This document shows, piece after piece, positions 16,819-17,005 of a stretch of DNA of 64,000 nt. The notes under the pieces were generated by a model. That model was given only the letters and a program-made list of their open reading frames with translations. It had not been told where the DNA came from and did no database searches. Every line of letters begins with the position of its first letter. Within the stretch, counting starts at the first letter, position 1. The DNA is taken from NCBI RefSeq assembly GCF_046105845.1, contig NZ_CP151004.1, one strand, 5' to 3'. The stretch comes from Escherichia coli (lineage in GTDB: Bacteria; Pseudomonadota; Gammaproteobacteria; Enterobacterales; Enterobacteriaceae). The translations under genes and the position numbers were made by a program.

Positions 16819-17005
16819 AGGCTCCTTTTAGTTGCAAAGGTTGTGCTGAATGAAGATAAAAAGAGGCAACTTATTGCTCTGAATATAGTGCGTGAGGAGA
16901 TGAATAAATATCAAAAATCGCTCAATATGCCCGTGTGGGTGGATATATGTGGCGCGGGTTGCGATAACAGGGCAAGTTTCGCCCTGTTTTTAGTAGTAAG
17001 CAGAG

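Follow-up and report, generated by a model that had tools for sequence, protein, structure and literature searches.

A terminator-like hairpin between rbn and elaD of Escherichia coli coincides with the mapped 3′ end of rbn and probably serves as the 3′-end structure of its mRNA

The stretch of E. coli DNA that we analysed, 64,000 nucleotides of contig NZ_CP151004.1 (hereafter the window), carries the RNase BN gene rbn and the AT-rich gene elaD in tandem, and a short GC-rich hairpin lies in the spacer between them. An earlier sequence-only reading had singled out this hairpin as a plus-strand terminator flanked by two minus-strand genes, and the orientation of both genes is indeed minus. Over a compared stretch of 401 nt, the window is 100% identical to E. 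coli strain N3. The genes and elements of the locus, in window coordinates, are the following.

14231-15205, minus strand: yfbL
about 15236-15524, plus strand: yfbK, a decayed remnant
15595-16818, minus strand: elaD, deubiquitinase gene, AT-rich (~35% GC), start codon ending at 16818
16819-17005: rbn/elaD spacer, 187 nt, between two minus-strand genes
16880-16959, minus strand: C-rich, G-poor stretch, candidate rut region, downstream of the hairpin on rbn-sense RNA
16960-16967, minus strand: rbn-sense tail UUAUCGCA, within which the mapped rbn 3′ termini of K-12 fall
16968-16986, plus-strand reading: stem-loop CAGGGC-AAGTTTC-GCCCTG, 6-bp stem and 7-nt loop
16987-16991, plus strand: TTTTT (T5) run, the plus-strand U-tract, read on rbn-sense RNA as an A5 tract ahead of the hairpin
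17006-17923, minus strand: rbn (RNase BN) coding sequence, stop codon 17006-17008
beyond rbn, plus strand: elaA, elaB and menF, from the window gene list

On the far side of elaD, yfbK is reduced to a 5′ region with 73% identity to K-12 that runs into an early stop (ATGAGAAATATAAAATAA) and, after the loss of about 1.5 kb internally, to its last ~40 codons, which survive as a 44-aa open reading frame (15390-15524). This reduction, together with similar elaD alleles in which yfbL also directly follows elaD (L086, L088 and L090), defines at least three haplotypes at the locus: elaD+ yfbK+, elaD+ yfbK− and elaD− yfbK+. Between the end of yfbK and the elaD stop codon we observed a 13-bp palindrome at 15545-15578 (TTCGACCAGTCAG ... 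CTGACTGGTCGAA; 15 bp in K-12), a likely common terminator of the convergent genes yfbK and elaD that would belong to the elaD insertion. In the window, no other barrier separates antisense-elaD transcription from the promoter region of yfbK.

The spacer sequence at the site of interest is aaCAGGGCaagtttcGCCCTGttttt, and on the rbn strand the hairpin lies 20 nt downstream of the rbn stop codon. Read on the plus strand, it takes the form of an intrinsic terminator, with five G-C pairs in the 6-bp stem and U5 directly after. On rbn-sense RNA, additional G.U and A-U pairs lengthen the stem to 8-10 bp and leave a loop of 3 nt. Folding of a 36-nt context gave −14.0 kcal/mol on the plus strand (z = −3.8) and −14.6 kcal/mol on the minus strand (z = −5.0); no shuffled sequence out of 200 was as stable on either strand. 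We searched both strands of the 64-kb window for perfect 6-bp stems with at least five G-C pairs, a loop of 3-8 nt and TTTTT no more than 2 nt away, and found two distinct sites (13586 and 16968) where dinucleotide shuffles predict 0.16; the hairpin with its T5 run is thus beyond chance expectation. The d'Aubenton-Carafa score was +4.0 on the plus strand (T-tail score 3.94) and, owing to the tail UUAUCGCA (T-score 2.15, longest U-run 2), −22 on the rbn-sense strand. The terminator rule is therefore satisfied on the plus strand only, and the initial description of a canonical Rho-independent terminator there, with no U-tract in the minus-strand orientation, was accurate. A general terminator scan of the window did not report the 16968-16986 site, because it extended the stem via two A-T pairs and so consumed part of the T-run. 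The 19-mer of the hairpin is unique within the window, with up to three mismatches allowed. The other stem with a T-run (13586-13612, plus strand; CCGCCGACATGTTCGGCGG followed by T8) falls by synteny between the convergent genes nuoN and yfbM and presumably terminates the nuo operon. A second, weaker hairpin immediately precedes the main one on the plus strand (16930-16958; CCCGTGTGGG...CGCGGG; −10.6 kcal/mol on that strand), in a stretch that on rbn-sense RNA is part of the C-rich region.

To relate the hairpin to transcripts, we drew on published K-12 data, all of low read depth; K-12 and the window are identical over the hairpin and tail, and positions convert as MG = 2382525 + (17006 − window position). 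The TRS study labels a 3′ terminus of rbn as 'Primary', on the rbn strand, in two RNAtag-seq datasets (PMC10687069, Supplementary Data 2-4). In the RNAtag-seq data of Barsheshet, the dominant rbn terminus is MG1655 2382568 (+), significant in three of three replicates, and in the authors' own LB RNAtag-seq it is 2382571 (+), in two of three libraries (PMC10687069). These termini correspond to window positions 16963 and 16960 on the minus strand, 5 and 8 nt past the core stem, and the table entry for the terminus displays the identical hairpin, at −14.6 kcal/mol and with a maximum U-run of 2 (PMC10687069). The sequence-only reading had considered the hairpin not an obvious rbn terminator, a view that these primary termini do not support: the feature is the already-mapped 3′-end stem-loop of rbn. 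Counting against this assignment, Adams et al. curated Term-seq lists for three conditions, and in these neither strand has a 3′ end at 23825xx (PMC7815308).

Transcription near the stem is sensitive to Rho inhibition. [quoted passage not shown] The centre of this region corresponds to window position ~16889, about 80 nt beyond the rbn 3′ terminus, although the 800-nt windows are too coarse for placing events relative to the hairpin. The candidate rut region is found here: the first 40 nt of rbn-sense RNA after the hairpin contain 42% C versus 15% G (C/G = 2.8), the C/G ratio over 80 nt is 2.4, and the 60-nt excess of C over G after the hairpin stands at only the 91st percentile of the window.

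The opposite strand is also transcribed. The same table records a Rho region antisense to elaD at 2382764(−), where counts go from 274/21 to 503/139 when BCM is added (score 3.6) (PMC7815308), which corresponds to window position ~16767, about 200 nt before the hairpin on the plus strand. Reads upstream of this position demonstrate that plus-strand transcription toward the hairpin exists in K-12, and antisense-elaD counts in these 800-nt windows exceed sense-strand counts. The antisense signal falls 13-fold near 2382764 in a Rho-dependent manner, and it still falls 3.6-fold with Rho inhibited (503 to 139). Of the two sides, rbn sense transcription reaches the hairpin, and antisense-elaD RNA has its drop about 200 nt short of it. 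The proposal that the hairpin ends an antisense or small RNA held in part: antisense-elaD RNA does run toward it, and a search for a discrete small RNA found no sRNA family, annotated RNA (NC_000913.3) or conserved promoter. The plus-strand 3′ end expected at the hairpin under that proposal is missing from the Adams et al. lists at 23825xx and, among the TRS entries listed, from 2382500-2382559, an interval with no termini on either strand (PMC10687069). A low-level back-stop role on the plus strand may be compatible with the detection thresholds of the two studies, and from its sequence the hairpin should physically stop a share of the antisense RNA that gets past Rho.

We next considered natural variation in 4,488 genomes that carry the hairpin-side 66-mer, 4,142 of which have the canonical 37-mer. 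A C to T change in the innermost pair was present in ~243 genomes (2-mismatch matches, read against the true allele sequence) and was the only stem substitution seen in the ~4,488 genomes. This change leaves a U.G pair on rbn-sense RNA and a C.A mismatch on plus-strand RNA, and in a 44-nt context it shifts the folding energy from −16.3 to −12.6 on the rbn-sense strand and from −15.5 to −9.2 on the plus strand, which favours a role on the rbn strand. Pointing the other way, a G to T change at the top of the stem (88 genomes) removes the G.U pair that is found solely on rbn-sense RNA, so that the polymorphisms favour neither strand consistently. The A5/T5 run was cut to four in 1 of 5,426 genomes, with one flanking haplotype queried. 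Of the 24 columns in the element 3 were variable, compared with 22 of 163 in the rest of the spacer (Fisher p = 1.0). Given this equal density, conservation within E. coli is uninformative about function on either strand, even though the stem is intact in ~99.7% of elaD-bearing genomes.

The hairpin tracks with elaD. It was present in ~4,470 of the 4,488 elaD-bearing genomes, and in 4,142 genomes it occurred at a single place per genome; on this count, and its uniqueness in the window, we rejected a repeated palindrome of the REP/BIME type. From another ~960 complete E. coli genomes elaD is missing. Those that were examined have yfbK and rbn as direct convergent neighbours across a 120-bp spacer that holds a different, REP-like palindrome and not this hairpin, and similarity to the window stops at the rbn stop codon. 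A divergent Escherichia representative (L006) and E. albertii likewise have yfbK converging on rbn and no hairpin, and in Citrobacter, Salmonella, Enterobacter and others (80 species) we found no spacer-like sequence downstream of rbn. At the hairpin, GC content steps from ~35% to ~52%. This step and the absence from elaD-less relatives indicate that the hairpin belongs to the elaD insertion. A relic of an ancestral terminator shared by yfbK and rbn is ruled out by the hairpin-free spacers of elaD-less B2 E. coli, divergent Escherichia and E. albertii. An IS1-mediated loss extending from yfbP to just beside the hairpin removes elaD and leaves the hairpin next to rbn.

Several features of the region suggest, at the level of sequence, old and divergent haplotypes swapped by recombination, and not one clean insertion of recent date. 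Across E. coli and other Escherichia, the ElaD protein varies by up to 9% between alleles, the last six rbn codons (17006-17030) encode FTVFNV-stop in elaD+ and FAVFSI-stop in elaD− haplotypes, and the yfbK C terminus differs as well. A deeper search for ElaD homologues returned Escherichia alleles exclusively among its best 120 matches, at 91-97% identity and in the same context. In some strains, elaD is frameshifted.

We consider it probable that the hairpin is the 3′-end structure of rbn mRNA on the minus strand, with Rho termination downstream followed by trimming, and with an antisense face on the opposite strand. Polymerase on the rbn-sense strand would run past the rbn stop codon and on through the stem-loop, where a small share of transcripts may be released, a minority at most given the weak U-tract of UUAUCGCA. 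The remaining transcripts would enter the C-rich, G-poor spacer and be ended by Rho before elaD, and 3′-5′ exonucleases would then cut the tail back to the stable stem, producing the precise steady-state ends 5-8 nt past it. The A5 tract that flanks the stem on the rbn-sense strand makes the complementary strand read as a canonical stem with U5, which would be placed to stop antisense-elaD RNA that escapes Rho before it reaches the antisense of rbn; this second role is probably minor. We infer both the split of rbn ends between intrinsic release and Rho with trimming, and actual termination on the plus strand.

The rbn stem-loop is probably an ordinary member of the class of protective 3′ stem-loops described by Dar & Sorek in 2018, in which Rho terminates diffusely downstream, PNPase and RNase II trim back to a protective stem-loop, and the transcript carries a stable stem-loop, no U-tract and a rut just downstream (PMC6061677). 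In common with that class, rbn has a stable stem-loop immediately before a precise steady-state 3′ end (PMC6061677), a tail that lacks a U-rich tract, sequence richer in C than in G downstream and, as far as the 800-nt windows show, a bicyclomycin-sensitive region beyond. It differs in having an upstream A5 tract, a feature usually missing in the class (PMC6061677) and one that counts against the assignment; furthermore, Rho action at rbn is resolved to 800 nt, and the trimming step is one that we propose here by likeness to the class. Compared with a canonical intrinsic terminator, the plus strand offers a GC-rich 6-bp stem, U5 directly after it and a positive d-score, but it has no co-oriented gene, a U-run of just five, a 7-nt loop and no plus-strand 3′ end among the entries listed; on the rbn strand it is the U-tract that is missing. 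Bidirectional terminators, as the work of Ju et al. 2019 is relayed in a later preprint (bioRxiv 10.1101/2022.10.23.513370), resemble this locus in that one hairpin is met by two transcription units, here rbn sense and elaD antisense, and in one direction at least has the look of a weak intrinsic terminator. As relayed there, that class is defined by overlapping 3′ ends on both strands, whereas here the rbn-sense end alone is listed, rbn and elaD are co-directional, and the convergent partner is an unannotated antisense RNA that is mostly terminated by Rho.

The main competing explanation treats the element chiefly as a plus-strand intrinsic terminator that stops pervasive antisense-elaD RNA, or else a discrete transcript, antisense or small RNA, starting in or near the elaD 5′ region. 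The motif is canonical on the plus strand only, its T5 run is almost invariant, antisense-elaD transcription is real and shows the drop that persists under Rho inhibition, and promoter-like plus-strand sites occur within AT-rich elaD (16049-16076 and 16546-16575). We nevertheless find this reading rather doubtful, as the Term-seq lists and the TRS entries listed give no plus-strand-equivalent 3′ end at or near 2382540(−), the hairpin has no Rfam match and no annotated RNA in NC_000913.3, and the antisense RNA has already fallen, Rho-dependently, ahead of it; the U-tract is just five residues long, the loop has 7 nt, and the commonest stem variant weakens the plus-strand hairpin most. A true two-way terminator or insulator that came with the AT-rich elaD insertion is unlikely in our judgement. 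Such an element would, with Rho, end rbn transcription and so shield a silenced foreign gene, its U5 face acting as a Rho-independent back-stop against antisense transcription into rbn, and it would be relevant mostly when Rho or H-NS silencing is compromised. An origin for the plus-strand form that is compatible with the rbn 3′-end reading is that stem and T5 once terminated a plus-strand gene of a donor, arrived with the elaD segment and were co-opted as the rbn 3′ end. We hold this as a tentative possibility: the restriction of the hairpin to genomes with elaD-side DNA (neither elaD-less E. coli nor E. albertii nor other Enterobacteriaceae have it downstream of rbn), the step in GC content and the persistence of the hairpin beside rbn once IS1 has removed elaD all agree with it, but every ElaD relative retrieved sits in the same rbn-elaD context, there were no phage matches, and the matches in the plasmid collection were six E. 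coli records (96-98% identity), mostly Mb-scale and probably chromosomal, that offer no donor context. On these phage and plasmid results we rejected an origin in a mobile element.

Two further readings concern functions other than a transcript end. Shimada et al. assigned a constitutive sigma-70 promoter of elaD, TTAAAA-18-TGTTAT, whose hexamers are the A-tract of the hairpin and its 3′ arm plus tail, and with this motif they list a site for the RpoD holoenzyme, from genomic SELEX, in the spacer between rbn and elaD (PMC3946193). It is quite improbable that this explains the sequence, as the motif was assigned by pattern alone and has 8 of 12 consensus positions, the resolution of the SELEX-chip is too low to place binding at the hairpin, the window allele reads CTAAAA, and the mapped end at the site is a 3′ end and not a 5′ end. 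A promoter scan found none on the minus strand of the spacer, although an 8/12 match falls below its threshold, and the Cappable-seq supplements of Ettwiller have no entry at this locus. A small plus-strand protein gene of 76 codons (16786-17016) running through the spacer is scarcely credible. Its frame is open in most alleles, and PGAP called it once, as a hypothetical protein in strain SL124 (L101 140-366, equivalent to window ~16740-17016, plus strand). This call was the only annotation in 60 sampled genomes and had no counterpart in the other annotated regions retrieved, and the start is a TTG inside elaD. We rejected the open reading frame on allele comparison, as nearly all spacer polymorphisms are non-synonymous in it, in L087 it is broken, with at most 29 codons open across the hairpin, and L092 has lost 1 nt, which cuts the frame short. 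In an Rfam covariance-model search, the best overlap amounted to noise, a partial match of 13.6 bits against a gathering score of 181.5 (E = 3.5).

Assigning the hairpin to rbn has little consequence beyond annotation. By sequence rules the hairpin appears 'orphan' and 'wrong-stranded', and it is the mapped 3′ end of the neighbouring gene. Many E. coli mRNAs are terminated by Rho further downstream and then trimmed by exonucleases, which leaves their 3′ ends with no U-tract, and U-tract orientation alone is therefore a poor guide to the transcript that a hairpin serves. If the plus-strand face works too, the locus would be a small example of a boundary element that shields a core gene from antisense RNA started in AT-rich DNA acquired by horizontal transfer.

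Two minor observations concern the neighbourhood. The precomputed Pfam matches of RNase BN include PF23023 (Anti-Pycsar_Apyc1) beside Lactamase_B families, an annotation curiosity that reflects the shared metallo-beta-lactamase fold. Furthermore, two unrelated strains, B2C (Viet Nam) and 200088 (Mali), carry IS1 at almost identical positions within a few bases of the hairpin (window ~16950-16955). The insertions beside the hairpin are located as follows.

L001, 3946-4000: IS1 insertion
L100, about 200-217: IS1 insertion

In B2C, the insertion is accompanied by deletion of elaD through yfbN. The sequence next to the palindrome may be a target hot spot for IS1.
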